Positions 1 through 46,193 are shown, counted from the first letter of the stretch. The stretch: DNA of 64,000 bases from a virus (IMGVR_UViG_3300050034_000334), one strand, 5' to 3'. The notes: generated by a model from the letters alone, not told the origin. Made by a program: numbers and translations.

Positions 1-496
1 TGTGCAGTAGATGATCCGCAGGCAACTCACAGGCTTTGCATTCTGGACTACCCTCTTGAGGAACGAACTTGTGACGACCGTAAGGCCACCACTCTCTGTG
101 GGCGGCGGCTGTCTTAGGATCCTCATCCATGTTATCTTCCGCGACGTCAAGGAACTCCTCGACCGGAACCTCATGGATGGCCTGTACCCGCGTCTCCCTC
201 CAACCTGGATCAAATTGGGCGAGATAGACCGCTTCAGCTTCAGGCAAGGATTCGAAGCCCAACATCACCTTGTACTCATCGAAGGAACCATCCTCCTTGA
301 GTTGCTCCACCACATAAGCGTGCGGGGAGTGGTGATCATCTCCGACATACACGTCCACGGCCTCTCCATCGCCTCTCCCGGTTGTATCGGGGATGAAGCC
401 ATAGTCGGCTTGCAGGATGCGATTGTGCCGGCGCTCGCCCTTCCACTTTTCAACCGTTACGGGAAGCCCTCTAAAGAGGTAATCGTGATCGTCCAT
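1..496 (-). CDS. InPase (inorganic pyrophosphatase-like, phage polyvalent-protein type) domain protein; truncated at window edge
   Basis: Not in the ORF track because it has no stop in the window. ATG at 496 overlaps the upstream TAA (TAATG). Manual translation: MDDHDYLFRGLPVTVEKWKGERRHNRILQADYGFIPDTTGRGDGEAVDVYVGDD...VVEQLKEDGSFDEYKVMLGFES...AVYLAQFDPGW, matching the InPase pattern YG.I..T.G.DG..VDV...DE.KVMLGF, followed by PKTAAAH and an H..C..C..H motif. Confidence 0.8.
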   Translation of the reverse strand, partial: MDDHDYLFRGLPVTVEKWKGERRHNRILQADYGFIPDTTGRGDGEAVDVYVGDDHHSPHAYVVEQLKEDGSFDEYKVMLGFESLPEAEAVYLAQFDPGWRETRVQAIHEVPVEEFLDVAEDNMDEDPKTAAAHREWWPYGRHKFVPQEGSPECKACELPADHLLH

Positions 497-1227
497 TAGG
501 CGGCCTCCAATGAAGACTGGTACTTAACAATCCGATGAACCCATTCCATGAATTCTTCTACTGGGCTGTTCATTTTTGCTCTGTTGCATCGTCCACAACA
601 GGACACTACATTTCCTTCTTGATAGGGCAACGAGTTATTAACCCTATCTATTCCGTTTCTCGTAAACGAAAACTTGTCAGTCTTGTAGCGAGCTTGGGTA
701 TCTCCTCCCGGAGAATAACTGTAGACTTGACGAGGTTCCACTCCGCAGTAGTAACACTTTCCCTCAGCTAGTTCTCTGGTCCTCTCCTCAGAAAGACCCC
801 AGTCAAGACCTCTATCCTTGGCGTTGCCTTGTAGAGTTTTGAATAGCATGTGAAAAGCAGCTTCATGAGGAGGTAGTCTGTTCTGGTACTCCTCCAGTAA
901 GCATCCACAACTTCGAGTATTCCCATTTCGTAGACGGTGGGCCAGAACTCTGACTTCTTTCCCACAGTCACACTCGCAGCGCCAAATGGCACCGCCGCCA
1001 ACTTTGTCTGATCCAGTTCCAATCCTCTCAAGTGCGGTCAACTTTCCAAACTTCATACCGATCATGTCCTTGTGACGGAAGTAGGGTTTGGAAGGCTTTC
1101 TGGTGAGAATTATGCGACGGTTAGTACATCTTCGACAAGTTATCTTCGCCTTTTCCGCAAATTCATACGCTGCCTTTGTCTTGTAACTGATCTCAGATGA
1201 GCACTCCGGACAACTTCTAGTGAACAT
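496..1227 (-). CDS. HNH homing endonuclease (Zn ribbon + CxCG/RSCGC domain + HNH)
   Basis: KFGKLTALER..WRCECDCG..LRNGNTRSCGC, then CYYCG..NGIDRVNNSLPYQEGNVVSCCGRCNRAK. Confidence 0.85.
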   Translation of the reverse strand: MFTRSCPECSSEISYKTKAAYEFAEKAKITCRRCTNRRIILTRKPSKPYFRHKDMIGMKFGKLTALERIGTGSDKVGGGAIWRCECDCGKEVRVLAHRLRNGNTRSCGCLLEEYQNRLPPHEAAFHMLFKTLQGNAKDRGLDWGLSEERTRELAEGKCYYCGVEPRQVYSYSPGGDTQARYKTDKFSFTRNGIDRVNNSLPYQEGNVVSCCGRCNRAKMNSPVEEFMEWVHRIVKYQSSLEAA

Positions 1228-1257
1228 AGATAGACCTCACTATTGAGGCTGGTAGTC

Positions 1258-4242
1258 CTAATGTTCGAAAGCACTAATGAATATTCTTCTGTTTTTAGTT
1301 GGCAACTTGATTGCAACATTAGCTGCTTCTTCTAAGATTGCTTCCTTTCGATGGAACTTGTCAGCGCAGTCAGGACAGACGACCTTCTTGTTCACTTCGA
1401 GGACATCGTCACCATTGAGATGTTCACCACATTCCTGACAGTTCTCGACGCCTTCCCGGGGATCGCTGGCCTTCTTTCTAATAAAGGTTGGCATCTTGGT
1501 CTTTCTGCCAACGAAGATGTTCATTCCTTCCAGCTTGATTCCATCAGAGGCTGATACATATTCGTCGTCGATAGGATTCAACTTCCAATCAACCGAACTG
1601 TTCTCCACTATCTGCTGGGTATCCGCATCCCAGCCACGACCTCCTTGGAACTGCCCTTCGAGTACCTGACCACCTTCTACTGGAACAGCAATGACTCCAT
1701 AATCGTGATAGTAGTCAATCAGAGAACGCTGCTCCTCATTGAAGTTTTTAGGGTATTCTTCATCATTATCTCCATTATTCATGCTCTCCATCCAGACATT
1801 GTACTCTGCGTTGGTGGTCCTCTCAAAATTCTCGAGCCACTCTCTGATCTGGGCTGAAGTGCCGTTCACTCCTGACGAGACAAGGGTTCCTGCGCTTGCT
1901 CCATAGTACCTGAAGTAGAGAGCATAGATCTCTGGTTCTTCACTAGCCTTTTTGGTGGTCTTGATCTTTGGGCACTTCAGTATTCTACCCACAGCTAGTG
2001 AGTTTAGTGCATCGATCTTGATTCCTTCTGAAACAGATACCTCGAGGGAAGATGGCTCCAATCTCCATGTTCCGTATTGCCCCTGGCGCCTGGTCATGGG
2101 ACTGCGTTCTCCACTGAAAGTGCCTGTGTATATCCGGCCTCCTTCAGTGGGCACAATAGCAGGATTTAGACCCTCAGCATAGTAGTTGCATAGCTCTTCC
2201 TGATCATGAGCCAACGTGTCTTCATTGAGGTATTTGTTGAATGTGGTCTTGTCAAAATCATCATCTAGCCACTGCTTGATGGCTTCAAGAGACCCAGAAA
2301 ACCCAGTTGCGATCCCATCAGTAACTCCCAGCAGTTCCATGAACAGCAAGGAGTATTTTTCCTCCTCGTCACTTCCATTCAGACGGAACTTGGGAAGGTG
2401 GATCTGCTTACCCACAAAGTTGGCATTCATCCCCTCAATCTTGATGCCTTCAGAAGCAGTGACCTTTGTGTCAGAGGGGAACATCCTCCAACTGGTGCTG
2501 GCATTCCAACGCATCTCTTGGACCAACCCTCCCTCTGCAGGGATGGCGATTGCATCCAAGGTGCCAAACCTCTTGCACAGTTCCTTCTGATCAGGAGTGA
2601 AGTTGAGAGGAAACTCATCAGAATCTTCTGGTCTGTTTCCTGGCCAATCCAGGCTCGTGTTGAGGGCCTTGACATGTTTGTCGTATATGGAATATGTGGT
2701 CTTTTCGAAGTTGTTGACCCACTCCACGATCTGTTTGGCAGTCCCGTTGAACCCGGTCGTATAGATGGTGTCCGGCTTCCTACCATTGAAGCACAGAGCA
2801 TAGACCGTGTCATCTTCGGGAGTGAGAGGTTCCTCAGGAGGATTGTTTCTCATCACTTCGGAGTCTCTCAGTTCCCCGGCTTGCTTGGCTTTTCCTTCAA
2901 CCAAGCCATGAATCAGATCCTTGGACTCTTCGAACAGAGTGACAATGCCTGGATGGTAATCTTTCGGGTTGTCCTTGATGTCCTGCTCAATCTCTTCCAG
3001 GGTAAACCACTCGATGCTGTCATTCTCCCACTCATGACCGAAGGTCGGCTGGAAGGCGAACTCCTCGTCCACCACACCGATGAAATTTGAATATGTGAAA
3101 TCTTCTTTCTTAAACACGAAGGCAGCATGAGTCTTGATGGGACCTGAATACCCGGTCTCTTCCTGCAACTCAGTCCTAGCACTCTCTTCGGGAGACATAT
3201 CCTTCTTGACCGCTCCACCCAGGGTGCCCCAGCAGTTGCCCTCTTCGACCTTATCGCTTCTCCATGCCAGACAGATCCGCTTGGTCTCGCTGCAGATCGG
3301 AACGACACCAGAGGACTGAGCTTTCCAACTGTCGTCTGAAGCAGTCCTCTTGATCACTTCATTGAACGGAATGAAGGAGTCCTTGTCACCCTTGTTCTTC
3401 ATTTCCAGACGAATCCCTTCAGCCGTCGAAACAGTATTGCCTTCATCCGATTCTTTGAAGTTAGGAGATATCCATGCACGGACTTTTCCACCCTCTGTGG
3501 GAAAGGCATACAGAGCGAAGTATTTGGCCGTGAACTGGTTCTTCTCACTGTCACGTGCCCACTCAGTGATCTCAGGTAGCGTCCCGGTCATGCTTGTGGG
3601 CTGCAGCATGGGAGTTCTCTGGTCTTGCATGGTGACATAGAACAGAGAGTACCGATCATCCTCTTCCTCGCCAGCCGTATGAGGTCCTCCCTTTTGGGTG
3701 CGGACCATTCCCTGTCCTGGCTGGTTCTTCGTGGTGTGAGCACAGAACTTCAGGGCCTCGTCGTTGGACAATGGGACTCCGAACCAGACATCATTCACGC
3801 TGTTTTCACCAGAGGACTCGACTACCTTACCATCTTTCAATCCCCAGGTGTGCTGATGCCAGCCTTGAAAGTTGTGGCCATACCCGATGACGATGGTGTC
3901 TATCTTCCCCTTTTCATAGAGAGTCGCGATGTTCCAGTGACAGTCGCCTTCAGACATGGGGATAAGAGATGGACGTCCTCTGTAAGCAACTCCTCTATGA
4001 GCGATAGCTGTTGAGTCGGGATCGTTCTTTAGTTGACCTCCACTTGTAGTGTCTCCTGGCGCCAGACTACGAAGTTTCTTGGTCAGTTCTGCTGAAGATC
4101 CCTCCTTGAATAGAGCAGGATTCATCTCTTCAAGAGGCAATATCTCGTTCTCATCCTGGCGGTTGTCAGGATCTAGAGCCCATCCGTTAGACATTGGTTC
4201 GAATTCTGGACGGGTAGCGAGAGGAGGATTCTTTCTGCTCAC
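1258..4242 (-). CDS. 994-aa multidomain protein: Cys/His domain, Nudix hydrolase, four copies of an unrecognised repeat domain, C-terminal Zn finger
   Basis: Nudix-like GGAVKKDMSPEESARTELQEETGY; CHWN...HTW motif; repeated Y[AS]L.F..GT..QI.EW..P.EGG.V..EGI[KR][LI] units; CQEC..CPDC. GTG start with AGGAGG RBS. Confidence 0.75.
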   Translation of the reverse strand: MSRKNPPLATRPEFEPMSNGWALDPDNRQDENEILPLEEMNPALFKEGSSAELTKKLRSLAPGDTTSGGQLKNDPDSTAIAHRGVAYRGRPSLIPMSEGDCHWNIATLYEKGKIDTIVIGYGHNFQGWHQHTWGLKDGKVVESSGENSVNDVWFGVPLSNDEALKFCAHTTKNQPGQGMVRTQKGGPHTAGEEEDDRYSLFYVTMQDQRTPMLQPTSMTGTLPEITEWARDSEKNQFTAKYFALYAFPTEGGKVRAWISPNFKESDEGNTVSTAEGIRLEMKNKGDKDSFIPFNEVIKRTASDDSWKAQSSGVVPICSETKRICLAWRSDKVEEGNCWGTLGGAVKKDMSPEESARTELQEETGYSGPIKTHAAFVFKKEDFTYSNFIGVVDEEFAFQPTFGHEWENDSIEWFTLEEIEQDIKDNPKDYHPGIVTLFEESKDLIHGLVEGKAKQAGELRDSEVMRNNPPEEPLTPEDDTVYALCFNGRKPDTIYTTGFNGTAKQIVEWVNNFEKTTYSIYDKHVKALNTSLDWPGNRPEDSDEFPLNFTPDQKELCKRFGTLDAIAIPAEGGLVQEMRWNASTSWRMFPSDTKVTASEGIKIEGMNANFVGKQIHLPKFRLNGSDEEEKYSLLFMELLGVTDGIATGFSGSLEAIKQWLDDDFDKTTFNKYLNEDTLAHDQEELCNYYAEGLNPAIVPTEGGRIYTGTFSGERSPMTRRQGQYGTWRLEPSSLEVSVSEGIKIDALNSLAVGRILKCPKIKTTKKASEEPEIYALYFRYYGASAGTLVSSGVNGTSAQIREWLENFERTTNAEYNVWMESMNNGDNDEEYPKNFNEEQRSLIDYYHDYGVIAVPVEGGQVLEGQFQGGRGWDADTQQIVENSSVDWKLNPIDDEYVSASDGIKLEGMNIFVGRKTKMPTFIRKKASDPREGVENCQECGEHLNGDDVLEVNKKVVCPDCADKFHRKEAILEEAANVAIKLPTKNRRIFISAFEH

Positions 4243-4251
4243 CAGTTCCTC

Positions 4252-6924
4252 CTACTGTCCGTGTCTCCACAAGCCATAGGCTTCCATGGGATCGTCGACG
4301 ATTTCAACTTCGTCGGGATCGTCATCCAGAGTCAGGTCATATCTGCGACATTCCGGATTCATGCATTTGCGGACCCGCTTGTGATCAGGAGTGCCCGAGG
4401 GTTCCCACTCGAGCTTGTGTTCGCAGTCAGGGCAGTAATCGCAGTTGGGGCACTCACCTTCTGCCGTGTCTCCCTTGCAGTTTTCACACACATCACAGTT
4501 GGTGCAACGACCCTGCTCATCGAACTTCTTCTCACCGCAGTTTGCACACTCGCCTTCACTGTTGATGGCGGCCTGCTTTAGAAGTGGATGTTTCACGTTT
4601 GCCTCTTTCTTTGCTGATGCCATCGAAAGTTGTGTCCATCTCATCTGGTTGTAGTCATCATCTTGGCTGCTGCGCGGCACTTCTTTCTTCTTCACATGTA
4701 CGATCGAATCCGGATACATGTCTTGATACATACCAGCAACTTCTTCAGCCGTTCCAGGATTGGTAACAACCTTGTCTTCGGCTGGGAAGTCAGCATTCTG
4801 GAAGTGGACATGCCACTCACCCGGCTTGCCGTCAATGATGATGTGATCAACTGGTCCAGACTCTGCCTTCTTGGTGCTGGCGTTCATCTTGATTTTCACC
4901 ATGTCGAGTTCGCCGGTGATTGCACGACGTTCCGACATATCCAGCATCGGATCAGCTAACTCTCTTTCGAGGAATTTCTTCCGTCTCTTGAGTTCTTCTG
5001 GATCCATTTTCGAAACCTTCTTCTTCATTCTCCTGAACTGCTCAGGATTCACGTTGTCATTCCAATTCCACTGCAAACTGGGATGATTGACTCCTGTCTC
5101 ATCTTTCTTTTCGACAGGGTCCGCATGGACGACCGGATCGGCGATCTTGTGAGACTTGCCATTCTTCCGAACTTGGATGTCACTGGCAAACTTGACTGGA
5201 GCGGCATCGTGACTTGGCATGAACCCGCCACACTTTTCTCCACAGATGTCACAATCTCCTCTCTCGTCATGATCGTAGAATCCATGACCACAAATGCAAG
5301 AGGGATTGTCCTCGTTCCGCCAGGGAGCATCCTCGTTCATGGTTCTATGAGGGTGACCCTCTGGTAGCTTCTTGCGAGGCACATGATACTGTTCACCACT
5401 GGCATCTGTGAAGCCGGCAACATTCTCGTCGCTGATCATGGGATCGTATTCAGCTTCAGGATGCTTGGGATGGGATCCTGCCTGCTTGGCGTTCATGCGA
5501 TAGATCTCTTGAAGAGTGTCTTCATCCTGATCAGTGATGGGATACCGCTCTTCCACCGGAGTCTCCTCATCTTCCCATCTGTTCAGAAGTTTGTGCTTCG
5601 TAGCAAAGGGGTTCGACTCCCTCTTCTCAGAACGCTGACGCTGTGGCATCGGAGCCTGACACCAGTCACAATACTTGTTTTCTGGGTTGTTGGGATGCTC
5701 ACATTCCTCGCAGTAATTGGGGTCACCTGGACCCGGCTCCCAATTGGGATCGATGACGGCCTTCTTCGGAACGAACGCAGCGAAACGAGGTCCACCCTGT
5801 GGCTCTTGTACTCTTCGTTCCTCTTTCTTCTGCTCGTCTACATAGGCTGCATAGTCGGAGGGACGTTCCCACAGAGTCTTGTTGCAGTGCTGAAACTGTT
5901 CAGGAGTGGGAAGAGGAGCACCAGCGAACAGCCGATGTTGCAGCAACTTCTTAGACCCGAACATCTTCATGTCTTTGAGTTCCTGCTGGTCTGCATCACT
6001 GAAGGGATTGTCGTAGTTTGTTGCCTGCTGTTGAGGCTTAGGAAGCATCCTCTCCAGGTACTCAATGGCATCATCGATTGATCCCCAGTCGACATCAAGC
6101 TGATTTGCAAGATCCTTCTTGGCCTCGATCTCCTTCTTGATCTGCTGAAGGCGAGAGATGGTGATGGGGAGATACCGGGGATCGTCTGTACCAGCCTTCT
6201 TGAGACTGCCGTTCTTGGGTCCTTCGAATTCCCTCATCCCTGGATACATCTTCTGGAACTGCAACCAGGCTCTCTCCTCCGCTCCCTGGTACTGTCTTTG
6301 AGCATGGCTGACGCCCATGTACTCTGATCCCAGATTGTTCATTTCCCGAGACAAGAGGTTCATGTATGTGCGACGTTCTTCAGGACTCAACACGACCAGC
6401 TTCTTGCGATTGAAGATGCCGCCGGACTTGGTGCGAACCATCTCGTCTCGTGGAACAGACGTGGTCGTGAATGGCTTGGACTCTTTCCCGTGAGCGCGAT
6501 TCCAAAGCTCTGATTGAATCTTCTGGAACTCACGAAGTTCGTCCTGTCTGTACAGAAGCACTCCCCAGCGACGCTCTGCTCTCTTGTTGATCTCCTCGAG
6601 CCGTGCAAGCAGTTCTTCAGTCGTGCTGCTGGAAACCTGCTCGTGTTCAACATCCCGGTCCTTTGGTTCAAAATCGCGACTTGTCCAATTGACTCCTGCA
6701 GTCTTCTTCGGGCACTTGCAGTGTTCCTTCAGATAGTCGCATTCGGGGCAATAGGCTTTCTGCTCAGCCTCGTACTCCTTCTTGCATTTATCATTGCAGA
6801 AGTGGGGTCCACGCAGGGATTCGGAGTGGCTGTAGGTGGTGATGTGACGACCACACTGTTCACACTCAGCAGATCCTAGGATGGCTGCGGTCCGGCTGTT
6901 GTAACTTCTGAGAAGAGGATTCAT
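4252..6924 (-). CDS. Large modular protein with many CxxC zinc fingers (putative head/internal protein)
   Basis: At least ten CxxC pairs in distinct modules separated by KxA motifs. Start moved to the ATG at 6924 (MNPLL), which has GGAG upstream. Confidence 0.6.
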   Translation of the reverse strand: MNPLLRSYNSRTAAILGSAECEQCGRHITTYSHSESLRGPHFCNDKCKKEYEAEQKAYCPECDYLKEHCKCPKKTAGVNWTSRDFEPKDRDVEHEQVSSSTTEELLARLEEINKRAERRWGVLLYRQDELREFQKIQSELWNRAHGKESKPFTTTSVPRDEMVRTKSGGIFNRKKLVVLSPEERRTYMNLLSREMNNLGSEYMGVSHAQRQYQGAEERAWLQFQKMYPGMREFEGPKNGSLKKAGTDDPRYLPITISRLQQIKKEIEAKKDLANQLDVDWGSIDDAIEYLERMLPKPQQQATNYDNPFSDADQQELKDMKMFGSKKLLQHRLFAGAPLPTPEQFQHCNKTLWERPSDYAAYVDEQKKEERRVQEPQGGPRFAAFVPKKAVIDPNWEPGPGDPNYCEECEHPNNPENKYCDWCQAPMPQRQRSEKRESNPFATKHKLLNRWEDEETPVEERYPITDQDEDTLQEIYRMNAKQAGSHPKHPEAEYDPMISDENVAGFTDASGEQYHVPRKKLPEGHPHRTMNEDAPWRNEDNPSCICGHGFYDHDERGDCDICGEKCGGFMPSHDAAPVKFASDIQVRKNGKSHKIADPVVHADPVEKKDETGVNHPSLQWNWNDNVNPEQFRRMKKKVSKMDPEELKRRKKFLERELADPMLDMSERRAITGELDMVKIKMNASTKKAESGPVDHIIIDGKPGEWHVHFQNADFPAEDKVVTNPGTAEEVAGMYQDMYPDSIVHVKKKEVPRSSQDDDYNQMRWTQLSMASAKKEANVKHPLLKQAAINSEGECANCGEKKFDEQGRCTNCDVCENCKGDTAEGECPNCDYCPDCEHKLEWEPSGTPDHKRVRKCMNPECRRYDLTLDDDPDEVEIVDDPMEAYGLWRHGQ

Positions 6925-6994
6925 CGAAACTCCCGAACACACGATGTTCTACAATGTATTTAGAAGTTGGAGCGGTGTGCGGTATTATGTAGAT

Positions 6995-8528: not shown

Positions 8529-8529
8529 G

Positions 8530-10011
8530 TTATCCTTTGTAGATGTTGACCTCATCCTGAGGATTGAAGCGACGAACCTGACCTGGCTCGCCCAGAAGTG
8601 CAACCTTGCCACCTTCCAAAGTCGCTTTCTTCACAGCCATGAAAGTACCTGACATGGCAAGAATATCGCCAGGCTGAATCATGTCAGCTGTCACCCAATG
8701 AAGTTCCTTTGATCGAGTTGAAGCATACAAACCCCAGTCAACAGTATGATTCAGCTTCTCTCCTCTGGGCACGTCGTTCTCTTCCAGTCCAGGACGGAGG
8801 ACTCTGTTGTCAGGACCAGTGGTGGTGAATTTCCATTCCTTGGTATCTGGGAAGGAGTACTGAATGTCCTCCACCATATCCTCAAGAGCTTCATCGATGT
8901 TCTCGCTAGCACCAGAGACCGATATTCGAATCCACTTCTTGCTTGGGTCACTGAAGACATACCCGCGATCAAGGCGGTCAAAGGAATATCCATGAGAGGG
9001 CAGTCCATTTGCACTGCAGAACTTCTCATGAAGACACATTATCTTGAGACCACGATCGTTCTTCGTATACATCCTGTACATGGGGAAGACGTATGGTCCG
9101 TTGTCAGGAGTCCAGAGCCACTTCATCTCAGGTGCGAGAGCCGTGGGTGTCTTGTATCCTTCGGGGATGTAGTAACTGGCCTTCTTGCTCATCGAACCGA
9201 GCTTGGGTGGCTCATTGATTCCCTTGACGATGCCGTGATCCCAGTTCTTCCCACAGTCGTTGCACTTGGCTGTCTCAAAGTCAGTCGGCATCAGGCTGTA
9301 ATCAGAGGATCCACAGTTGGGACACTTTGGTTTCTTTGTAGACTGTTTACGGGCACTGGGCTTGTTGAAATCTCCATAAGTATACTTGTGGCATGGACGC
9401 ATGTTCTTAACCTGAAGACGAACACCTTGCTCCGGAGTGATTTCTCCACCAGCACCCTGAACTTCAGGTTCCCAGAAAGTACCACCCCATCCACGCAGAA
9501 CTGTTCCGCCATCGACTGGGAAGGCCAGCAAGGGATAGTTTTCACTGAGATAGCTAGCAAGATTTCCTTCTATTTCTCCAACACGTTGAATCCAGCCTTC
9601 TCCAAGATCTGCAGTTGATATGGTGCGTAGTTTTGTGATCCATTGATTGATTTGTTCTATTGTACCATTCATTCCAGTGGAGATCATGGGATACTGATCT
9701 CCTCTAGGACCATGGTCTAGTGCTTTGCCAAAGTAGACTGCATACTCTTCTCCAGAAGCCGTCTTGTTGCCATCACGAACGGAGATCAGAGTGATGCCCT
9801 TTTCCCTGGCCTTGAACGGATCGACGATGTGGTCTTTCCAGCGCACCGTCCACAGGGCCTTCTCATCTGCCTTGGTGGGAGACTTGACGATGTCGACCAT
9901 GGGGCCAAACACATCCACCAACTGAAAGTTACGCTCTTGCTCAGTGGGGAGCAGACCGATGATTTCAGCATGATGCCAAGGATTGGCCGCCAGCAATAGC
10001 TTAGAGATCAT
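8530..10011 (-). CDS. Modular protein with one copy of the repeat domain of 1258..4242 plus a Zn ribbon
   Basis: After NKTASG: EYAVYF..STGMNGTIEQINQW..LAFPVDGGTV..EQGVRLQVKN; then CPNCG..KCNDCG; KKAS before the next module. Confidence 0.7.
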   Translation of the reverse strand: MISKLLLAANPWHHAEIIGLLPTEQERNFQLVDVFGPMVDIVKSPTKADEKALWTVRWKDHIVDPFKAREKGITLISVRDGNKTASGEEYAVYFGKALDHGPRGDQYPMISTGMNGTIEQINQWITKLRTISTADLGEGWIQRVGEIEGNLASYLSENYPLLAFPVDGGTVLRGWGGTFWEPEVQGAGGEITPEQGVRLQVKNMRPCHKYTYGDFNKPSARKQSTKKPKCPNCGSSDYSLMPTDFETAKCNDCGKNWDHGIVKGINEPPKLGSMSKKASYYIPEGYKTPTALAPEMKWLWTPDNGPYVFPMYRMYTKNDRGLKIMCLHEKFCSANGLPSHGYSFDRLDRGYVFSDPSKKWIRISVSGASENIDEALEDMVEDIQYSFPDTKEWKFTTTGPDNRVLRPGLEENDVPRGEKLNHTVDWGLYASTRSKELHWVTADMIQPGDILAMSGTFMAVKKATLEGGKVALLGEPGQVRRFNPQDEVNIYKG

Positions 10012-11891: not shown

Positions 11892-12152
11892 ATGAGTCAA
11901 GCATATTCTCACGCCACTGTCGCCGCTGCCTTTGAGATCGCCGCCAAGACCACGACGATCGCCCTGACCAAACGGGCCTTCGAATTCGCCATCCTTCGCG
12001 ACAACCAGATGTACTCTTACGATGGCTGGTCTTTCATCCAGCACATGAACGAACTCTGGATCGAAGGAGAAGTTGACGGTCAGAAACGCTATCGCATGGC
12101 AGAGCACCTGGGATTCGGATGGGTGTCTGGTGCCAGTTTAGAGGTAGTGTAA
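11892..12152 (+). CDS. Hypothetical protein
   Basis: AGAAGG RBS; TAATG-coupled to the next gene. Confidence 0.6.
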   Translation: MSQAYSHATVAAAFEIAAKTTTIALTKRAFEFAILRDNQMYSYDGWSFIQHMNELWIEGEVDGQKRYRMAEHLGFGWVSGASLEVV

Positions 12153-37100: not shown

Positions 37101-38321
37101 CACTTCCATGGAGTGAAGCCGACTGATGGCATCGGCATCATTTGCGACACCGGGGGTCCTCAGCATTCCAGCGCCCGCATTGCCACTGGTGTTCTCGCCG
37201 CCGTTGCCAGCCGACTTGAAATACTCATGTGAACGGAGGGCCTTCTCAGCTTCCTCCTTGGATGCGTGAGAGTCAAGAATCTTCCCATCCTTGACATTGC
37301 ACCACGGGGCTTCCTTACCCTCTGAATCCTTGTGACCAGGCTTGTGCTCGATGGTTGCGAACTTGGACTCGAACTTGACTGAAGCACCCTTGCTGTTTTC
37401 GATGTTCATGTCAGAGGTGAATGATCCAGGCTCTCCGTAATCCGGATGGGCGCGAATTCCTTCAGGTTCCTTGATTGTGGTCTTTCCCACTTCCTCAGGA
37501 GCCTTGATCTCCTCGCCCTTGACTGTGAAGTCCTTGGTCAGTTCAGCCAAGACCTGAGTCTCACCAGGTTCCAGACCGTTATTCTCGGCCAGGATGATGG
37601 CTGCAGTCTTTCTGCTGAGCACAGCATAAGGCTTGCGAGCCGATGCCTTCTTGTTGACCTCATCACCCTTCTCCAACTCAGGGAAATTCTTGAGAGGATT
37701 TTCAGTGATGAACGGATACTGCATCTTCGGAGTCACGTCACAGACATCCACGCGAGCGGTGTCGATGTCAGTGGTGAGTGTTTCGAAAGCACTGGACAAG
37801 GCTGGATCGAAGTAGCAAGAGAAGATCAGGTGGCGAACCAGGTTGGCCAGTTCCTGATCATCCTTCGTGTACTTGAACATGACATATTCGCGAGGATTGG
37901 TCCAGGCCGGCAAGAACATGACGATGGATTCATACTTGCCCGACTGTTCGTTCTTGAAGAGCCGGTCTTTGATCTCCTGGTAGTCGGCCTTGCTGTATTC
38001 ATCGAACTCGGACTCACCAATCTTGTGCTCGAGAAGATCTGAAACCTCCTCGCCACCGAACTCACGGACAATTGCTCCGTAGAGGAGAGCCAGAGGGAAG
38101 TCTTCAAGGTTGTCTGCCACTGAAGCAGGAACAATCATGACGCGCCCAATGACAATGTGCTGACGAAGACCCTCGTAGAAGACCTGAAGAGACTGAATCG
38201 TTCCAGAACTCTTGGCCTTGTCCTCGCCCTGTTTGATAGCGGCGACGACTTTCGCGAGTAGATGATCTCCGATCATGAATGACTGCCAAGATCTTGCGGA
38301 GACTGTTCCCATTGGTTGCAT
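34113..38321 (-). CDS. 1402-aa acidic low-complexity protein rich in KxA motifs (putative internal head protein)
   Basis: Globular-looking N- and C-terminal regions flank E/D/P/H-rich modules; about 17 K-x-A motifs counted by eye. Confidence 0.6.
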   Translation of the reverse strand: MQPMGTVSARSWQSFMIGDHLLAKVVAAIKQGEDKAKSSGTIQSLQVFYEGLRQHIVIGRVMIVPASVADNLEDFPLALLYGAIVREFGGEEVSDLLEHKIGESEFDEYSKADYQEIKDRLFKNEQSGKYESIVMFLPAWTNPREYVMFKYTKDDQELANLVRHLIFSCYFDPALSSAFETLTTDIDTARVDVCDVTPKMQYPFITENPLKNFPELEKGDEVNKKASARKPYAVLSRKTAAIILAENNGLEPGETQVLAELTKDFTVKGEEIKAPEEVGKTTIKEPEGIRAHPDYGEPGSFTSDMNIENSKGASVKFESKFATIEHKPGHKDSEGKEAPWCNVKDGKILDSHASKEEAEKALRSHEYFKSAGNGGENTSGNAGAGMLRTPGVANDADAISRLHSMEVDRIEAPAPKVSAFTAPYQKPEEDVPDDGYCDACDRPASECICGKTAATHSRGFSSKASKKAADREARLAKLRPAGVVDAKTADVNMDFDSIWNAITEDLGPAPLVELKETKKSEPKAESTEPKAESTEPAAEPKSEEPKSEPKAEPKEDDYWNADYFAEEQEEHKEESHEHEAEEEAHEEGDHEAEVEDHEKEEDDHEAEVEDHEKEKSASVKKTAGEPQVSNQPFSALLAHDKDLGLVIMGAGAPQQAWVNGIAEMLVEEGIAKAPVFSEAFIIDGNVSGKEGRTDLALIFSPESQPNVGTLAMWRISFGNASWVDDFIANYGKDYGEEKIEWPEEQTDESMSGIYEDEDEDEDNDPHNEVTHKGGSVKKALSNPPEDQDTAKRLEGDTSINDASSEEEDHTGIKIPATEKLDKFAGIVKTAMEFTELDSLVEEMKADGFDAETIHLIFQTALGAINGEDEVVGSGWNDFGLDARTGDLMDELIRTLIQEYNSYEILEAVDAAAEDRSEADMWNNEHSQEGRMASSKKAYPDPGSSTLPEGHEWEEDKGAPDGMNVYTCACGAVYGENAGEAPYFSEGYEPHTPEFDERLKSEREEGQRHHAARDEQAPPEKKCPDCNCTSVQGIQQHYDGCPALREEEEHAKAAKSKKAEEAKHPLDSKPYDLRNAIDPKPKQSKPSGASFNIKDFVKTDPSKKASAFVLVAAEEDLPVVVEGAPKGKTENPETVRKDEREDWVTNSERPITAGFSFFYPGQALQEFYPEIQGEIVDSMPNPAPNEANNPMINDFDVSDAGKYVSTAPSAVGVGIQGQPQILNDSLPLRNEQGIRGIDFMDEYHGQLDDGIPSALLASMRLKKTANKTQDKEQFSEFIKLLVGEIAAAFVSAFKVTSRPVLNKVPGKGSISLEFVESSTSPVSSVGMSAGPGISNGSRIRSLLADLNDTDLQDIINGAWAQSAVWRNDPVDGYIYEVFVRCNKINKDTLTMEYEFITGTKEAE
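36481..36557 (-). repeat. 42-nt coding tandem repeat (DHEAEVEDHEKE)
   Basis: Two copies of tgatcctcaacctcagcttcgtgatc with period 42. Confidence 0.85.
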
Positions 38322-38324
38322 GTC

Positions 38325-38876: not shown

Positions 38877-39409
38877 ACTTCTCCTATCCTTGCAGTCTCT
38901 CGACGAAGCCGTTCATCATTGGTTTTCACCAAATCAGAAAACTGTTTCATGACACTGTCAATTGTAGTTCTGTCCAGTCCTGACTCTTTCAGAGATTTAG
39001 TATACAGAGTCATTAGCTCAACAAAAACGAATTGGAATTTTGGGCCGTCAAACGACAAAAAATCCTTCTTGGAAAGGATATCACTTTCAGTCAGTGATTT
39101 CTGCAATTCCCGAAGCATTTTGATTTCGTCATTCAAACTTCGACGCTGTGATATGAAGGTGGGATCGGAGTTGCCCAGCAGCACCAGTTCCTTGAGAGCG
39201 ATGGTCATCTCAATGGTGATCATCCTGGAGATGTCAGCGACCGATGAAGTCTGGTCCTGCATCTTCACCAGAATGTCTTCGATGTTCGTTTTCCGGTGCT
39301 TCGGCCCATCATCCTTCTCTTCTTCTTTCGGAGGCATAGTATTCTCAGGAGACGGAGCTACCTTTCCATCTGAGCCATCACTGAGAAATTTGAACTCCTG
39401 GTCTTCCAT
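38873..39409 (-). CDS. Hypothetical helical protein (terminase small subunit not excluded)
   Basis: Coupled ORF, all-helical appearance; no diagnostic motif. Confidence 0.55.
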   Translation of the reverse strand: MEDQEFKFLSDGSDGKVAPSPENTMPPKEEEKDDGPKHRKTNIEDILVKMQDQTSSVADISRMITIEMTIALKELVLLGNSDPTFISQRRSLNDEIKMLRELQKSLTESDILSKKDFLSFDGPKFQFVFVELMTLYTKSLKESGLDRTTIDSVMKQFSDLVKTNDERLRRETARIGEV

Positions 39410-40728
39410 TAAATCTCCAATGAGAAGTGAGAGCCAACTTCAATCTCGTATCCTTTGGGCTGGATGATGTCAATGTCTCCCAGCTTGGCAGTCGACGAGA
39501 GGTCGTATTCATTAAGCATCTGATGACCATCTTTCGGTGCACCAGAAGCAATCTTGTGGTTGGAAGAAGCCGTGCTCATCCCAGGGAAGCTCAGCAAAGT
39601 CCCGCCAGTGAGACCGCAGTGCATGCTGCTGCGATAAGCACAAGAGGAACACTTGGGTGCTCCAACGATGGCGTTCTGGACTCCCAATTTCCCCTTGAGG
39701 AAACGGCAGTCAATCTGGGAGAGAGCGATCTTGGTTCCTGCAGTCTTCAATCCACCCACGAACTTCTTCACGACATCAGCCGCCCGGACTACGCCAGCGG
39801 TCTTGACACCGAATGAATAAATCTTCTCGAGGGATGCTCCAGCAGTGTGAGCCTTGGAAATTGCAGCAACGGTGAATTCCGGAGAGGTGGTCTTGATGGT
39901 AGAAGCTGTCTTGGCCGCCGTGGTTCTCTGGGTGACCTTGTCATCCACTCGGACGATAGGAGCCTTGTCAGCGGTCTTCTGCTCGGCGCCATCACGGATC
40001 TTGGCAAGGTGTTCGGCTGCAGTAAACTGCTTCTTTTCCATGAACTTGTTGGGTTCCCAATAGTCCATGCCGTTCACATCTTCTGTTCCGCCGGCATCCA
40101 GATACTCGTGGGCAGAATTCCAGTTGAAGATGACATTTTCAGCCAGCTTCTTCTTGAGATAGTTGCTGATCTTCTCCTTGGAGTGACCGGCAGCTATGGC
40201 CTTGCGAATGCCCGCCCGGATGCTCTCATCAGAGATACGCTTGCCCTTGGTTTCGACTGTGGTGCCCTTGGCTTTCTCAAGTGAGATTGAGACATCCGCC
40301 AGCGCATTGTCATCCGAAGTGACCGCCGCCGCGCGATTCTTCCAGTCGTTGGGGACGGAAGAAACTCGAACGGTATCAAACGGATCTCCAAGAGGATCTC
40401 TGTCGTCGATTGGTTGCGAAACTTGCGCAGTCAAACCCTCTTCAGAGCAACCATTGTTATAGCAGCGAAGTACACCCAGTTGGTCCTTCTGCAATGGTTT
40501 ACTGCATGCCGGGCAATTCTGGTCGTACCCAGAGGCAAAGTGAACACCACCGTGGACTTCTCCTCGGTCACCTTCAATGGAACGTGTGAATGCCTTGTCA
40601 ACCTCGTCATGAGTCAGGTTCAAGAGTTCCTGACCAGAAGCTCTGGCTGCATTGAGTCCCACATCCTCATAGTCCGATGGTCCGTCAAGGAACGCGTCGA
40701 TGATACTCGAATACAGTTTTTCTGCCAT
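39409..40728 (-). CDS. Hypothetical protein with Cys clusters and KxA motifs
   Basis: CPAC..C..C and C..C..CG; KLAE, KTAD, KTAS, KTAG twice, KIAS. Confidence 0.65.
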   Translation of the reverse strand: MAEKLYSSIIDAFLDGPSDYEDVGLNAARASGQELLNLTHDEVDKAFTRSIEGDRGEVHGGVHFASGYDQNCPACSKPLQKDQLGVLRCYNNGCSEEGLTAQVSQPIDDRDPLGDPFDTVRVSSVPNDWKNRAAAVTSDDNALADVSISLEKAKGTTVETKGKRISDESIRAGIRKAIAAGHSKEKISNYLKKKLAENVIFNWNSAHEYLDAGGTEDVNGMDYWEPNKFMEKKQFTAAEHLAKIRDGAEQKTADKAPIVRVDDKVTQRTTAAKTASTIKTTSPEFTVAAISKAHTAGASLEKIYSFGVKTAGVVRAADVVKKFVGGLKTAGTKIALSQIDCRFLKGKLGVQNAIVGAPKCSSCAYRSSMHCGLTGGTLLSFPGMSTASSNHKIASGAPKDGHQMLNEYDLSSTAKLGDIDIIQPKGYEIEVGSHFSLEI

Positions 40729-41519
40729 TACAACCCTCCTTGGTATAGGCCGGACTTGGACCTATTTCTTTCAGCAATTCGAATTGCCTGAGCAGCGCGA
40801 CGTTCGGGAGTCCATGCCGATACCATTTTCTTGCAAAATTCGGAAGAACGCTTCTGACCTAGGTTTGAAAGACGACTTTTTAGACGCTCTTCTTGTGAAA
40901 CTACCCTTCCCTTGGAGGATTCTCTGTGCTTTCGACGAGTTTCATCAGTTACACCTGCTCTAATGGCTGAAGAAGAGTTTTCTCTGTAGTCTGGATCTCT
41001 CCATAAACTTTCCATTCTTACAGCAAGTAAATCGTAATTGACAGAAGGAGTTTTTCCCTTCCTCTGAGCACAAAATAGAGCTCTTGTGAAATTTGAATGA
41101 GTCCTGCCGGTACTACTGACCCTGTGTTTCTCTCGTGTATCCTCAGAAACGAACCTTCCTGTCATTGCTACACGCAGCTTCTGCTTTGTGGATTCTGAGG
41201 AAGTTCTCCCACGCATAGGAGCACCTGCTTGAAGAGCGATGTTGTACCCACTATGAACAGCATCGAAAGCATCAATGGCTAGCTGTTCTTTCTCCAGAAG
41301 TTGCTCTGTAGGACAGTAAATAATCACGTCGAATTCAAAAACGGATTCTCCATACTTATTGAAGGCATTCTGAAGTTTGGGGTTGTAATGCTTGTTTGTT
41401 TTCAACTCTCCGAAGTGTTCCTGGCATCTCTTTGATAAATCGGCACTGCTTCCTATGTACACTTTTTGGTTCAAAGTGTTTAGTATCCTGTAAACCCCGC
41501 AATTTGACCAATCATTCAT
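40728..41519 (-). CDS. GIY-YIG homing endonuclease with NUMOD3-like repeats
   Basis: CGVYRILNTLNQKVYIGSS..GYNI..AG; GR..S..T..K repeats. Confidence 0.9.
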   Translation of the reverse strand: MNDWSNCGVYRILNTLNQKVYIGSSADLSKRCQEHFGELKTNKHYNPKLQNAFNKYGESVFEFDVIIYCPTEQLLEKEQLAIDAFDAVHSGYNIALQAGAPMRGRTSSESTKQKLRVAMTGRFVSEDTREKHRVSSTGRTHSNFTRALFCAQRKGKTPSVNYDLLAVRMESLWRDPDYRENSSSAIRAGVTDETRRKHRESSKGRVVSQEERLKSRLSNLGQKRSSEFCKKMVSAWTPERRAAQAIRIAERNRSKSGLYQGGL

Positions 41520-41842
41520 CAGAACGTGAGATCTCCTAAGATTTGACTCAGAAAGTTACCAGGTGAATCCGCTGGTGCTCCAGCTATTGACTCTCCGTTG
41601 TCAACTTCATCAACAGACAGTCGTATAATCTTTCCTCCCTGTACTTTCCAAAAGTTTTTTGTTGATACGCACCTGTATGCATTTCCAGCCACACGAATCA
41701 GCCCCATCTCCTTTATCTTTTGGCGGAGTTCTGGGGTTATGGATGCTGTCTTGAAATGATGTTCAGTAGGAGCAGAAGAGGGTTGTTCACTCACCTGTCG
41801 ACTTCCGCCCAAACCATGACTGCTATACCGAAATCGATCCAT
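41519..41842 (-). CDS. Hypothetical protein
   Basis: AGGAG RBS; FKTAS then GLIRVAGNAYRC..FWKV. Confidence 0.7.
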   Translation of the reverse strand: MDRFRYSSHGLGGSRQVSEQPSSAPTEHHFKTASITPELRQKIKEMGLIRVAGNAYRCVSTKNFWKVQGGKIIRLSVDEVDNGESIAGAPADSPGNFLSQILGDLTF

Positions 41843-43355: not shown

Positions 43356-43422
43356 TTGGGTTACTCACCTCCTACCCGATATCTATAATACTTCGGTAGA
43401 AGGTAGAAAGGGAAATGTGCAC

Positions 43423-43901: not shown

Positions 43902-43915
43902 AACTGACCAACTTC

Positions 43916-45823
43916 CTACTTCCTGACAGGACGAGCACGAGTGAGCTTCGAACCGAACTTCTTCGAAGGATCATCGTTGCCCATCCAGTAGTTGTCGGAG
44001 CCAGAGGCTTCCTTGACTTCATCCTCGATAGGCTCCTCTTCGACAGGTGGCGGTGGCAGCGCAGGCTCTTCTTCGATGTGCTCTTCTTCCATGCCCATGC
44101 CCGGCTCTTCCTCGGTGTGAATTTCCACACCAGAGTTTTCGGCCAGGTTCTCGATGGCGCCAGCGGCTTCATCCAGGAGTCCATACACTTCGCTCAAGGC
44201 CTCGCCGAACTGCTCCGGCTCTTCCTCAGCCAGCTTCTTCAGGCCGGCAGCGAACTTGGAGGCTGCTGCCTTCTTCTCGGTCGGACTCGCTGTCTTCGGT
44301 GGATCGGAGAGATTGAGATTGTCTCTCATGTTGAGGAAGGAAGCACGAAGCGAGCCGAAAACATTGGCCAGTTCCGTAAGGGCTGACTTCACTTCCATGG
44401 GTTCATTCTTCGCAAGGAGAACCAACTTGTGCTGCTTGGGTGCCGCAGTGGCTGTTCTCGCCTTCTTGCGATTCGCGATTTTCTTGAGCAACTCTTGACG
44501 AGTAGTTGTTGAAGTTGCGGCCATGATGGGTTTCTCCTGTTTTGAAGCGTTCAAACTTGTGTGCAAGATCTGATTTGGAAGATCTGGAGGAACGGTCACC
44601 CGCTCCTTGCGCTCTTGAGGTTGACCAGGTGTGGGAGGAGCTCCTTCACTTCCTGGAGGTGGTGTATTCTGAGGTGCCCCATTGGGATTCACCACAGGAA
44701 TCTCTTCTTCCTGACCGGGAGCAGCTGGTGCTGTGCTCGAACCTGGAGTGGTGTGGTAGTAATCAGCCGTCTTCAGGGAGCTAAGCAACAGAGAGGATTT
44801 CTTGGAAGGAGTCTCAACTCCTCCAATGCGATCACGAATCAGATTCAGAATGCTGTGTGATGGATCGTACTCCGAGAACTCCATCATCAGCTTGCCGAAC
44901 TCCTTGTAGAGTTGCTTGAGACGATCGCCGCCCAAGCCGGTGTCACTCTTGAACTTGTCGAGGAACTCGGACTTCTTGCCATGTTCAGACTCGACAATGT
45001 AGTCGAAGATCATCGCCATCACCTTGGCGATCTTTTCAGACTTCTTGGTCTCCTTGACAAATTCATAGAACTCGTCGCGGATGGTCTTGAGTTCGTCCTC
45101 TTCCTCGATGTCCTTCACGCTCCTGTTGGCCTGAGCATGCTCTTCAGTGTCGAGGATGTTGAACTCGGTACCATCGTCTTCGGATTCTTGAATCAGTGAG
45201 ACCTGATGCTGTGAAGGCTCCTCTGAATCTTTGCCTTTCTTCCAATCCACATGCCTGTCGATGAAGTCTTTGGCATCACTGAGACGATAGCCAAAAATGT
45301 ATCTCAGATAGCCAGTTATCTGCTTTTCAAGAGGCTTGGTTCTGTCCTCTTCTGGGACCCTGTTCGGATCGAACTTGGAAAGAGTCTTGCGATCATACAA
45401 CTCTCTGACGAGAACGTGAGAGATCGCTTCATCCACCAAGTCCTCATCAAGTCCACCGGCTGCTCCCTCTCCATAGAGACGAGAGATGTAGTTCTTTTGG
45501 AACCACTTGTCCCAGTTCTGGGCTTCGTCAATAGGATAACCGGATTCCTTGATTGCCTCCTTGACGATCTTGTCGATCTCCAACCCATAGACTGCGATCA
45601 TTCGCAATGTTGCCACGAAACGCATCATCTTGGGTGAAGTGATCAATCCCTTCTTGGCCAACTCGGAGGAGCTCAAGGTCAGCTTTTGTGTTCCAGCTAT
45701 GTTTGTAAGCTGGTATTTCTCTCCAGATGGGGAGGCAATTTTCGCCTTCACCCGGAAGGAACGTCCTTCCCTGGTTGTGATTATCTGACCTGGATCAATC
45801 GAAATGTGAGCATTCAGTATCAT
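43916..45823 (-). CDS. Modular protein: sigma-like central domain plus scaffold-like helical C-terminus
   Basis: EDLVDEAI..L.KFDP..ITGYL, VSL..DD..LD and an HTH-like end; LKTAD boundary; KxA-rich C-terminus. Confidence 0.55.
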   Translation of the reverse strand: MILNAHISIDPGQIITTREGRSFRVKAKIASPSGEKYQLTNIAGTQKLTLSSSELAKKGLITSPKMMRFVATLRMIAVYGLEIDKIVKEAIKESGYPIDEAQNWDKWFQKNYISRLYGEGAAGGLDEDLVDEAISHVLVRELYDRKTLSKFDPNRVPEEDRTKPLEKQITGYLRYIFGYRLSDAKDFIDRHVDWKKGKDSEEPSQHQVSLIQESEDDGTEFNILDTEEHAQANRSVKDIEEEDELKTIRDEFYEFVKETKKSEKIAKVMAMIFDYIVESEHGKKSEFLDKFKSDTGLGGDRLKQLYKEFGKLMMEFSEYDPSHSILNLIRDRIGGVETPSKKSSLLLSSLKTADYYHTTPGSSTAPAAPGQEEEIPVVNPNGAPQNTPPPGSEGAPPTPGQPQERKERVTVPPDLPNQILHTSLNASKQEKPIMAATSTTTRQELLKKIANRKKARTATAAPKQHKLVLLAKNEPMEVKSALTELANVFGSLRASFLNMRDNLNLSDPPKTASPTEKKAAASKFAAGLKKLAEEEPEQFGEALSEVYGLLDEAAGAIENLAENSGVEIHTEEEPGMGMEEEHIEEEPALPPPPVEEEPIEDEVKEASGSDNYWMGNDDPSKKFGSKLTRARPVRK

Positions 45824-45986
45824 TCTATAGAGGAGGAGGTAGTCGTTTCTTTGATATCAAAATGATAAAGTGTAATGTCTGAACTATCAGAACCACTGTA
45901 GTGAGTGACCTATCCTTATAGTCACGAGCGCAACATCAGACTACGGGATTCTCAGATTGAGAGTCACCTTTCAGGAGAAATTCCAA

Positions 45987-46193
45987 ATGGCTAAAATCGC
46001 AAAGCAGGATCGGGAAACCATGAACGCTCTTTTCACCAAGGAGCTTTCTCGGATGACAGGCACCAAGATCGCCGGGGAGAAAGACCTCCAGGCCTTCAAG
46101 GACCATGAGGAGTACATGGCAACTCTGTCGTCTGTGCTGGCTGATGACAAGACCGAAGGCGGCCAGGACCCTAACGCGAATTTCTTTGAGTGA
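45987..46193 (+). CDS. Small hypothetical protein
   Basis: AGGAG RBS; KIAK and KIAG motifs. Confidence 0.7.
   Translation: MAKIAKQDRETMNALFTKELSRMTGTKIAGEKDLQAFKDHEEYMATLSSVLADDKTEGGQDPNANFFE

Follow-up and report, generated by a model that had tools for sequence, protein, structure and literature searches.

Several large proteins encoded on a 64,000-nucleotide stretch of the viral record IMGVR_UViG_3300050034_000334 (hereafter the window) are built of many small modules, and a short Lys-x-Ala motif recurs where one module gives way to the next. This raises the question of whether the motif is a cleavage site and, if so, which enzyme cuts it. An initial annotation of the window had read the motif as [K/R]-x-A and proposed that a K-x-A-specific head protease cuts these polyproteins into separate enzymes and zinc fingers that are packaged and injected. 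Here we report that the motif is real and specific, is conserved across a large phage lineage and lies at module borders. We suggest that a head protease probably cuts after the Ala and releases the modules of packaged polyvalent proteins.

A Lys-x-Ala motif is over-represented in the window genome

The window lies on an IMG/VR virus record of 143,574 bp that is fragmentary (CheckV completeness 46%). The motif was counted in the 146 open reading frames (ORFs) of at least 80 aa on this contig, and expected numbers were derived from the composition of each protein and from shuffles. K.A[SGA] was observed 90 times compared to 38.9 expected (p 2e-12) and KTA[SGA] 18 times compared to 2.3. The initial annotation anticipated a density above a shuffled background, and this was borne out by K[TKQ]A[SGA], with 38 observed and 6.5 expected (p 2e-17). 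The loose pattern K.A was weakly raised (256 observed, 181 expected, p 1e-7). In unbiased scans, K.A ranked second by over-representation among 400 gapped pairs, behind the P.C of zinc fingers, and KTA and KKA ranked second and fifth among 8000 tripeptides. Lys held up as the first residue and Arg did not, since R.A was found exactly as often as expected (155 vs 155); H.A was likewise not enriched (58 vs 65). The true motif is K-x-A-[S/G/A], where x is mostly T, K, I or Q and the first position is Lys, Arg and His being unenriched overall. Single Arg or His sites at conserved positions (RTAS299, RTAA17 and HTAG188, described below) may still be used.

Low-complexity sequence rich in Lys and Ala would also raise the reversed motif and A.K, and these controls stayed flat on the contig (4 observed vs 6.5 expected and 187 vs 181, respectively). 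Changing a single residue of the motif also abolished the excess, with K[TKQ]S[SGA] at 3 vs 5.9 expected and R[TKQ]A[SGA] at 6 vs 5.3. In protease nomenclature, with the Ala at P1, the preferences were T, K, I or Q at P2 and S, A or G at P1', plus D or N at conserved sites, the P1' preference being partly circular because the candidate sets were partly picked using the motif itself. No clear preference was seen at other positions. The synonymous codons used for Ala and Thr at the sites match genome usage, which indicates selection on the protein rather than on a DNA word; a DNA-level signal was therefore rejected.

The sites are concentrated, seven proteins holding 42 of them compared to 8.2 expected, and the polymerase, the terminase and the large proteins of the tail and baseplate carry about as many as expected. 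The first two served as internal negative controls:

22755..26663, minus strand: DNA polymerase, 1302 aa; K[TKIFVQ]A 2 observed vs 2.9 expected
30005..31936, minus strand: terminase large subunit, 643 aa (PHROG 9); K.A[SGA] 1 observed vs 0.45 expected

The initial annotation had counted about one K[TKIFV]A in each. We counted two K[TKIFVQ]A in each, with 2.9 expected in the polymerase and 0.7 in the terminase. By a local-hydrophobicity proxy, sites lie in less hydrophobic surroundings in the related phage Tunturi_5 (p 1.4e-4).

An xLL leader ahead of the motif, suggested earlier as a targeting tag, was rejected: in the 10 aa upstream of sites, LL was counted 8 times in the window genome, where 6.7 are expected, and 17 times in Tunturi_5, where 17.8 are expected. 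The leader of the major capsid protein (MCP) does read LLK[ST]A, though the xLL leader is at chance level overall. A Dps/ferritin-like protein (window 17630-18130, plus strand; Pfam Ferritin, E 4.7e-16) begins MKFASKLLLA.

The motif marks head protein families across the Tunturi_5 lineage

Tunturiibacter phage Tunturi_5 is a 309-kb jumbo myovirus that infects soil Acidobacteriota (PMC11924767), and its DNA polymerase shares 48.6% identity with the window polymerase. The two genomes share the gene order terminase (30005-31936), sigma-like gene, primase, polymerase and portal (19276-21843), as well as many structural genes. A megablast search of the window against deposited phage records found no nucleotide-level relative. 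The window phage is a jumbo myovirus of the Tunturi_5 lineage, whose sole isolated member infects soil Acidobacteriota.

The motif had been defined on the window genome, and the whole genome of Tunturi_5, the nearest isolate, was put through the identical test as an independent check. K.A[SGA] was observed 169 times compared to 93.9 expected (p 2e-12) and K[TKQ]A[SGA] 50 times compared to 15.3 (p 2e-12). The Arg and Ser variants were flat, the reversed motif was at expectation, and the AK and KA pairs were at expectation in both genomes. Outside the carriers the Tunturi_5 proteome was flat (K.A 326 vs 322.7 expected). The leading carriers were gp328, annotated as 'DNA ejection protein' (12 sites), gp350, annotated as 'DarB-like' (10), gp332 (8), which is scaffold-like and encoded after the head maturation protease, and gp348 (8), followed by gp345, the portal, the MCP and the protease. 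The Tunturi_5 portal, gp7, has TKTAG ahead of LFEDGNL, and the MCP, gp334, has LLKSA-AG at residues 19-23; LLK[ST]A[AG] is invariant at the MCP N-terminus among relatives.

The window homologues of leading carriers (34113-38321, 39409-40728 and 43916-45823) hold 20 sites compared to 4.7 expected. Where flanks can be aligned, sites are also kept in place between the window genome and Tunturi_5, as in SKVAG/TKTAG of the portal, KKASA/KTASA, HFKTAS/HFKQAS, AKIASP/AKSASP and KTAAA/KTAAP.

Non-identical ORFs from about 130 loci of metagenomic relatives were then grouped by Tunturi_5 homologue. The totals for each family, which include related sequences and are not counts of independent events, were as follows:

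MCP family: 92 observed, 12.4 expected
Protease family: 87 observed, 16.7 expected
Scaffold-like family: 366 observed, 126 expected
Portal family: 55 observed, 17.2 expected
gp328 family: 70 observed, 29.3 expected
gp350 family: 117 observed, 33.7 expected
gp345 family: 45 observed, 17.4 expected
Terminase family: 6 observed, 12.3 expected
Polymerase family: 13 observed, 10.5 expected
Sigma family: 6 observed, 4.4 expected
gp333 family: 6 observed, 8.1 expected
Tail gp336 family: 11 observed, 14.2 expected

The split is clean: head-internal families are enriched and all other families tested are not. One motif is thus common to the capsid protein, the portal, the scaffold-like protein, the protease and the internal head proteins, and the non-head proteins stay at expectation. 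In about 100 metagenomic relatives, as in Tunturi_5, the excess extends to the large modular proteins.

Motif sites lie at module borders of polyvalent proteins

The modular and head proteins of the window in which sites were located, all of them on the minus strand, are:

2..496, minus strand: N-terminal 165 residues of a 749-aa polyvalent protein; the remainder lies left of the window
1258..4242, minus strand: 994-aa modular protein with a Pfam NUDIX match at residues 310-427 (E 2.8e-12)
3670-3681, 3337-3348, 2875-2886, 1942-1953 and 1465-1476, minus strand: DNA of its sites HTAG188, RTAS299, KQAG453, KKAS764 and KKAS923, respectively
4252..6942, minus strand: 896-aa modular protein rich in Zn ribbons
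8530..10011, minus strand: 493-aa modular protein with KTAS83 (9754-9765) and KKAS276 (9175-9186)
19276..21843, minus strand: portal, 855 aa (PHROG portal, E 3e-18)
34113..38321, minus strand: modular protein of 1402 aa, neighbour of the terminase; a shuffled middle lies between a conserved N-domain (1-280) and a conserved C-domain (1152-1400)
39409..40728, minus strand: 439-aa protein with KTAD251, KTAS273, HTAG294, KTAG309, KTAG328 and KIAS392
41519..41842, minus strand: 107-aa protein with KTAS31 (41741-41752) behind a variable N-terminal leader
43916..45823, minus strand: 635-aa homologue of Tunturi_5 gp345, a 'virion structural protein'

All the sites that the initial annotation named were present at the genes it gave. 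Its six motifs in 39409-40728 were matched by six K[TKIFVQ]A, but its approximately 17 motifs in 34113-38321 came down to 14 (3.0 expected).

In the protein encoded by 1258..4242, the layout described earlier was recovered in full. Module A (~50-187) is followed by HTAG188, repeat 1, RTAS299, the Nudix module, KQAG453, repeats 2 and 3, KKAS764, repeat 4, KKAS923 and a Zn finger. Each repeat and the Zn finger starts right after a site, bar repeat 3 (~residue 624); the four repeats were seen by eye and are not detected by self-BLAST. RTAS299 and KQAG453 bracket the Nudix match, and K[TKQ]A[SGA] is found three times in this protein compared to 0.2 expected (z 6.8). For module A (CHW..GYGH..W.H.W), the Atlas gave only a weak YunG-like lead. 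A multiple alignment made for folding this protein was not used because MAFFT stacked module A fragments on the Nudix block (identities 10-20%).

In 8530..10011, KTAS83 is followed by a cassette of ~140 aa, a Zn ribbon (~225-268) and KKAS276. The cassette (87-227) and repeats 1-4 of 1258..4242 form one repeat family (EE.Y.L.F ... G.NGT..QI.EW ... A.P.[ED]GG ... GI.[IL]), and no homologue of the cassette was found outside near-identical relatives. The protein encoded by 4252..6942, whose true start is probably M7 at 6924, carries RTAA17, KTAG80, KKAG248, KKAV, RFAA386, KQAG486, KFAS584, KIAD599, KKAE691 and KQAA789, with K[TKQ]A[SGA] at 4 compared to 0.1 expected (z 11.2). When it was searched singly in viral contigs, only a 99% copy was found.

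The N-terminal part of the 749-aa protein (2..496) has an InPase domain at residues 8-117 (Pfam PF18823, E 1.7e-26), followed by KTAA128 (window 104-115), whose KTAAA corresponds to KTAAP in Tunturi_5 gp272. The whole protein has four K.A[SGA] compared to 0.74 expected, a weak FR47/GNAT match, and matches to the PHROG families 'minor head protein' and DarB-like. A recurrent cassette, ..H(R/Q)(E/Q)WWP(Y/H)GRH.., occurs as ..HREWWPYGRH.. at residues 128-145 of this protein, after the InPase domain and KTA; the same module follows a Zn-ribbon module in the metagenomic proteins P0177 and P0178 (INDPSDKTAAQHRQWWPHGR). GNAT domains are also present in a 1538-aa protein encoded upstream of the window.

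The 34113..38321 protein has ten K.A[SGA] compared to 2.5 expected, including KKAS224, KTAA238, KTAA451, KTAG621 and KKAS1102. Its N-domain is 45% identical to Tunturi_5 gp350 ('DarB-like'), with KKASA/KTASA kept, and every homologue in relatives shows an excess (among them 15 vs 2.7 and 15 vs 1.9 expected). The 39409..40728 protein is a homologue of Tunturi_5 gp348, with NHKIAS/NHRIAS kept and relatives at 11 vs 1.9 and 9 vs 1.5 expected. In 41519..41842, HFKTAS corresponds to HFKQAS in Tunturi_5 gp347. The 43916..45823 protein carries KIAS28, KTAD351, KTAS510 and a K/A-rich C-terminal stretch (six K.A[SGA], 1.0 expected), and AKIASP/AKSASP and PKTAS/PKTAT are kept between it and gp345. A 68-aa ORF with KIAK and KIAG (MAKIAKQ...TKIAGEK...; 45987-46193, plus strand) lies between two minus-strand structural genes and is a candidate coding sequence.

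The position of the motif at borders also holds in unrelated proteins. HMMER searches with the 1258-4242 protein gave 1450 hits that matched module by module: one block (~50-187) ends just ahead of HTAG188, and the Nudix block runs from ~303/310 to 444/456, between RTAS299 and KQAG453. K.A was present within 20 aa upstream of the Nudix module in 40 of 70 unrelated carriers (background 10%, p 4e-22), typically as K-[TVKI]-A-D-H...G-F/Y-W-A-G, and just downstream of it in 26 of 58 (p 1e-11), compared to 15 upstream and 10 downstream for the reversed motif. Within 20 aa after a Zn-ribbon module of the 8530-10011 type, K.A was present in 22 of 27 unrelated carriers (background 0.20, p 9e-12), typically as INDP-KTA-S.

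The portal carries KVAK, KIAS38, KVAG100 (21535-21546), KKAG288 and KMAA352. KVAG100 directly precedes the conserved core LFSDGNLG..NIGY, and K-x-A-[G/A/S/D] occupies this place in 19 of 20 distinct relatives, while the 60-110 residues upstream of it vary in length and sequence among the 20. KVAG100 is the predicted cut of a portal propeptide. Portal residues ~355-445 form a low-complexity insertion rich in Gly, Pro, Ala and acidic residues, which is variable in length, is present in all relatives and has a GGGGG run at its end; a semi-conserved (K/Q/S)-x-(T/M/V)-A-(A/E/D) element lies ahead of it.

Modules are gained and lost at the motif. The metagenomic protein P0156 is 94% identical to the 8530-10011 protein and lacks exactly residues 87-227, directly after NKTA. 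A second, P0004, is 48% identical overall to the 4252-6942 protein, and in their alignment blocks of ~100% identity alternate with unrelated or inserted modules. P0004 has an extra insert of ~170 aa bounded by CPKTAA and SKTAG and lacks a Zn module whose end is at VKFAS; the two sequences part right after KIAD and become identical again at TKKAE and GPRFAAF. Such alternation indicates very recent module exchange between otherwise diverged phages. The association with domain boundaries that the initial annotation saw by eye was thus recovered at the bracketed Nudix module, behind the Zn ribbons, ahead of the portal core and at cassette insertions and deletions next to KTA.

Judged from sequence, the modular proteins belong to the polyvalent proteins described by Iyer et al. 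(PMC5512222). A single polypeptide combines several effector domains of unrelated kinds (InPase with GNAT; Nudix with repeats and a Zn finger; Zn ribbons), and domain order is mosaic and shuffled among relatives, as seen in P0004, P0156, the module-wise hits and the split or shuffled homologues of 34113-38321. Pfam and PHROG scans found no embedded peptidase in the modular proteins, although remote homologues could escape such scans. The shared tag, the annotations of homologues and the location of the genes beside the portal and terminase genes suggest that the modular proteins are packaged.

Five genes for homing endonucleases lie between the modular and head genes:

496-1227 and 38325-38876, minus strand: HNH / endonuclease VII type homing endonucleases
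40728-41519 and 42648-43355, minus strand: GIY-YIG homing endonucleases with NUMOD3
33168-34067, minus strand: another homing endonuclease

These genes may contribute to cassette exchange in relatives. One base, at window position 48960, differs between the window and the genome record.

Relatives encode a head protease modelled in the gp21/assemblin fold

In relatives, a protease gene lies between the ejection-protein gene and the scaffold-like gene, and the Tunturi_5 protein, gp331, matches PHROG 18299 'head maturation protease'. The relatives' protease has no Pfam match. An AlphaFold model built from 24 relatives has a confident core (44-255) and disordered tails (1-43 and 260-289), and the tails hold three conserved K-x-A sites: M-x-F-x-K-x-A at ~5, F..KTA[AS] at ~33 and FAK.AS at ~266. 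Foldseek with this model gave weak hits only (T4 gp21, E 0.025), and a VIA-align search was needed. In this exhaustive structural search of 48,161 Protein Data Bank chains, the top three were T4 gp21 (Z 8.2), varicella-zoster virus (VZV) protease (7.9) and human cytomegalovirus (HCMV) protease (5.9); the protease of KSHV (the herpesvirus associated with Kaposi's sarcoma) was sixth (Z 4.5), and unrelated folds begin at Z 4.6. By this model, the lineage has a serine protease with the fold of T4 gp21 and the herpesvirus assemblins. In our reading of the alignment, invariant His and Ser residues (VEHFQ / KGH and SMGC) appear in the order expected for this fold. An invariant Cys/His cluster at ~165-190 (GC..D..VCS.CG....D....C.H) looks like a zinc-binding insertion, and we know of no comparable insertion in T4 gp21 or the herpesvirus enzymes.

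The fold bears on where the cut would fall. T4 and phiKZ-type proteases cut after Glu, and in SPN3US the prohead protease acts on the portal, on ejection proteins and on a propeptide at its own C terminus (PMC10052503). In herpesvirus assemblin sites the cut follows Ala and precedes Ser or Thr, at YLQA-T and VQA-S (PMC4498786), which favours a cut after Ala here. A cut between the Ala and the small residue is the most economical reading of the motif, and it agrees with the cassette junctions, which lie directly after K-T-A or one residue later.

Proposed mechanism and alternatives

From the distribution, position and conservation of the motif we infer cleavage, the bond and the enzyme involved, and also packaging and injection of the modular proteins. 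We consider it likely that the head protease of the lineage cuts after the Ala and releases the modules of packaged polyvalent proteins. The protease most likely recognises Lys at P3, any residue at P2 (T, K, I or Q favoured) and Ala at P1, and cuts before a small or acidic P1' residue (S, A or G, also D or N). In the prohead, the capsid protein would lose a leader of ~20 residues at LLK[ST]A|[AG] and the portal a variable propeptide of ~100 residues (here KVA|G100), the protease would trim the tails at both of its termini, and the scaffold-like protein would be diced. The polyvalent proteins of the window, with their InPase, Nudix, GNAT, Zn-ribbon and repeat modules, would be cut at the joints between modules, so that small enzymes and Zn-ribbon proteins would be set free as individual products to accompany the DNA. 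With its own cut site at each border, a module could be inserted, lost or swapped without breaking processing; cassette exchange would then be tolerated, and this matches the mosaic pattern among relatives.

The original proposal is supported in part, by comparison, through the excess of the motif, its restriction to the head class, its position at borders and the presence in the lineage of a protease modelled in the gp21/assemblin fold. The Arg and His forms and the xLL leader did not hold.

Several observations weigh against the proposal. A search of the 143-kb fragment found no prohead protease gene, which the initial annotation had expected elsewhere in the genome; scaffold and capsid genes were likewise not found on it, and that part of the argument comes from relatives. 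The virion location is taken from automatic annotations of Tunturi_5 homologues and the PHROG 'minor head protein' match, and the Tunturi paper (PMC11924767) contains no virion mass spectrometry. Not every joint is tagged: repeat 3 of 1258-4242 has no motif, carriers of module A elsewhere have it in 3 of 31 cases, and the C-domain of 34113-38321 starts 49 aa past the nearest site. Some sites appear to lie outside the system. A Ku-like DNA-end-binding protein encoded left of the window (contig 12007-12966, plus strand; Pfam Ku, E 3e-42) has seven K.A[SGA], all from its K/A-rich C-terminal tail, and these are probably compositional; the KTAG of 99015-99638 corresponds to KTGG in Tunturi_5 and is likely due to chance. 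In the window genome the lower hydrophobicity around sites is a trend (p 0.064). An AlphaFold model of the portal (16 sequences) had a mean predicted local distance difference test (pLDDT) score of 51.8, low even in the core after residue 104, and was unusable for placing sites. The partial circularity at P1' and the relatedness within family totals, given above, belong here too.

Among the alternatives, the motif could be functional but uncut, serving as a docking or targeting element (for the scaffold, the portal or a chaperone) or as a site of lysine modification, possibly for the GNAT modules. The invariant residue is indeed a lysine, GNAT domains are present in the 1538-aa and 749-aa proteins, and binding and cutting look the same in sequence. 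We nevertheless regard this as unlikely: the sites fall at N-terminal leaders, in both protease tails and at module borders, as expected for propeptide and junction cleavage in T4 and phiKZ-type phages; Ala at P1 with a small P1' fits the rule of assemblin-fold proteases; and the many sites per scaffold-like protein suit degradation over docking.

The motif could instead be cut by another enzyme, either a peptidase embedded in a polyvalent protein or a host protease, before packaging or after injection. Polyvalent proteins have been proposed to process themselves through embedded peptidases such as MPTase (PMC5512222), and module A of 1258-4242, to which no function is assigned, leaves room for one. 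However, no peptidase domain was found in the modular proteins of the window with Pfam or PHROGs, and the motif also stands in the leaders of the MCP and the portal, in the scaffold-like protein and in the two tails of the prohead protease, which are classical head protease substrates. We therefore consider action by another enzyme improbable.

That the motif is without function, left over in the linkers of mobile cassettes that share an origin or arising as a side effect of linkers rich in K and A, is very improbable: modules are clearly exchanged as cassettes, and in 69 metagenomic multi-module proteins the reversed motif is also somewhat raised (172 vs 120 expected; forward 235), but in both genomes the reversed motif is found about as often as expected, and so are A.K, AK and KA, the motif is present in unrelated, non-mobile core proteins (MCP, portal and protease), and it is kept while its flanks diverge and its codons vary synonymously.

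Comparison with known processing systems

Cleavage by the head protease, as proposed here, would resemble the systems of T4 (gp21, L/I-x-E) and of phiKZ, 201phi2-1 and SPN3US (gp175 / gp245, S/A/G-x-E). These also use a head protease of the gp21/assemblin fold, and a three-residue code common to the capsid protein, the portal with its long N-terminal propeptide, scaffold or core proteins, internal or ejection proteins and the tail of the protease. T4 likewise packages enzymes with cleaved leaders in its head (Alt and the internal proteins). The differences are that the predicted residues here are Ala at P1 and Lys at P3, whereas theirs is Glu at P1, and that sites are found here also at many internal joints, so that one chain would give several products.

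The herpesvirus assemblins (MEROPS S21; (V/L/I)-x-A|S/T at the R and M sites) share the fold of the relatives' protease (VZV Z 7.9, HCMV 5.9, KSHV 4.5), and if the cut falls after the Ala, they also share Ala at P1 and a small P1', which carries a hydroxyl in assemblin sites. In contrast to them, the motif here has an invariant Lys at P3 that has no counterpart in the two assemblin sites (YLQA-T and VQA-S), and there is no hydrophobic preference at P4 in the window genome and a slight V/P preference in Tunturi_5. The phage protease also has the Cys-rich insertion (CS.CG...C.H), and sequence similarity between the two is undetectable.

Polyvalent proteins were predicted to be packaged in the capsid, delivered together with the DNA and self-processed by embedded MPTase-type peptidases (Iyer, Burroughs, Anand, de Souza, Aravind 2017; PMC5512222). 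The proteins described here resemble them in the many small effector domains per chain (InPase PF18823, Nudix, GNAT and Zn ribbons), in extreme mosaicism and in lying near portal and terminase genes. They differ in that no embedded peptidase was found, and in that PMC5512222 names no junction motif, whereas a defined K-x-A tag shared with the capsid proteins is present here. This tag points to processing in trans by the head protease. The best explanation, which we favour with some confidence, is a new K-x-A|small specificity within the known gp21/assemblin-fold type of processing, acting on both the shell and the polyvalent proteins.

Implications for the lineage

As a more tentative extension, a very large group of uncultivated soil phages could share a plug-and-play cargo system in which the K-x-A tag is the universal connector. 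A module between two tags would be packaged within its carrier chain and freed in the head by the assemblin-fold protease, and effector modules (Nudix, InPase, GNAT, Zn ribbons and repeat cassettes) would be traded between phages at the tag. If true, this possibility would explain why 100%-identical blocks alternate with unrelated inserts in relatives, and would answer how polyvalent proteins without a peptidase of their own are processed.

If the proposed cleavage is correct, soil jumbo phages of a large clade that is almost wholly uncultivated would have their first cleavage code, one unlike the Glu rule of T4 and phiKZ-type phages and resembling that of herpesvirus proteases of the same fold. 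Such a code would allow one to predict where the capsid protein, portal, scaffold and protease begin and end once mature, and would divide giant proteins that resist annotation into real working units. Tunturi_5 is cultured with its host, Tunturiibacter psychrotolerans X4BP1, so the prediction is directly testable. It offers a testable answer to how multi-effector polyvalent chains become active pieces, and suggests a route by which effector modules may move as cassettes.

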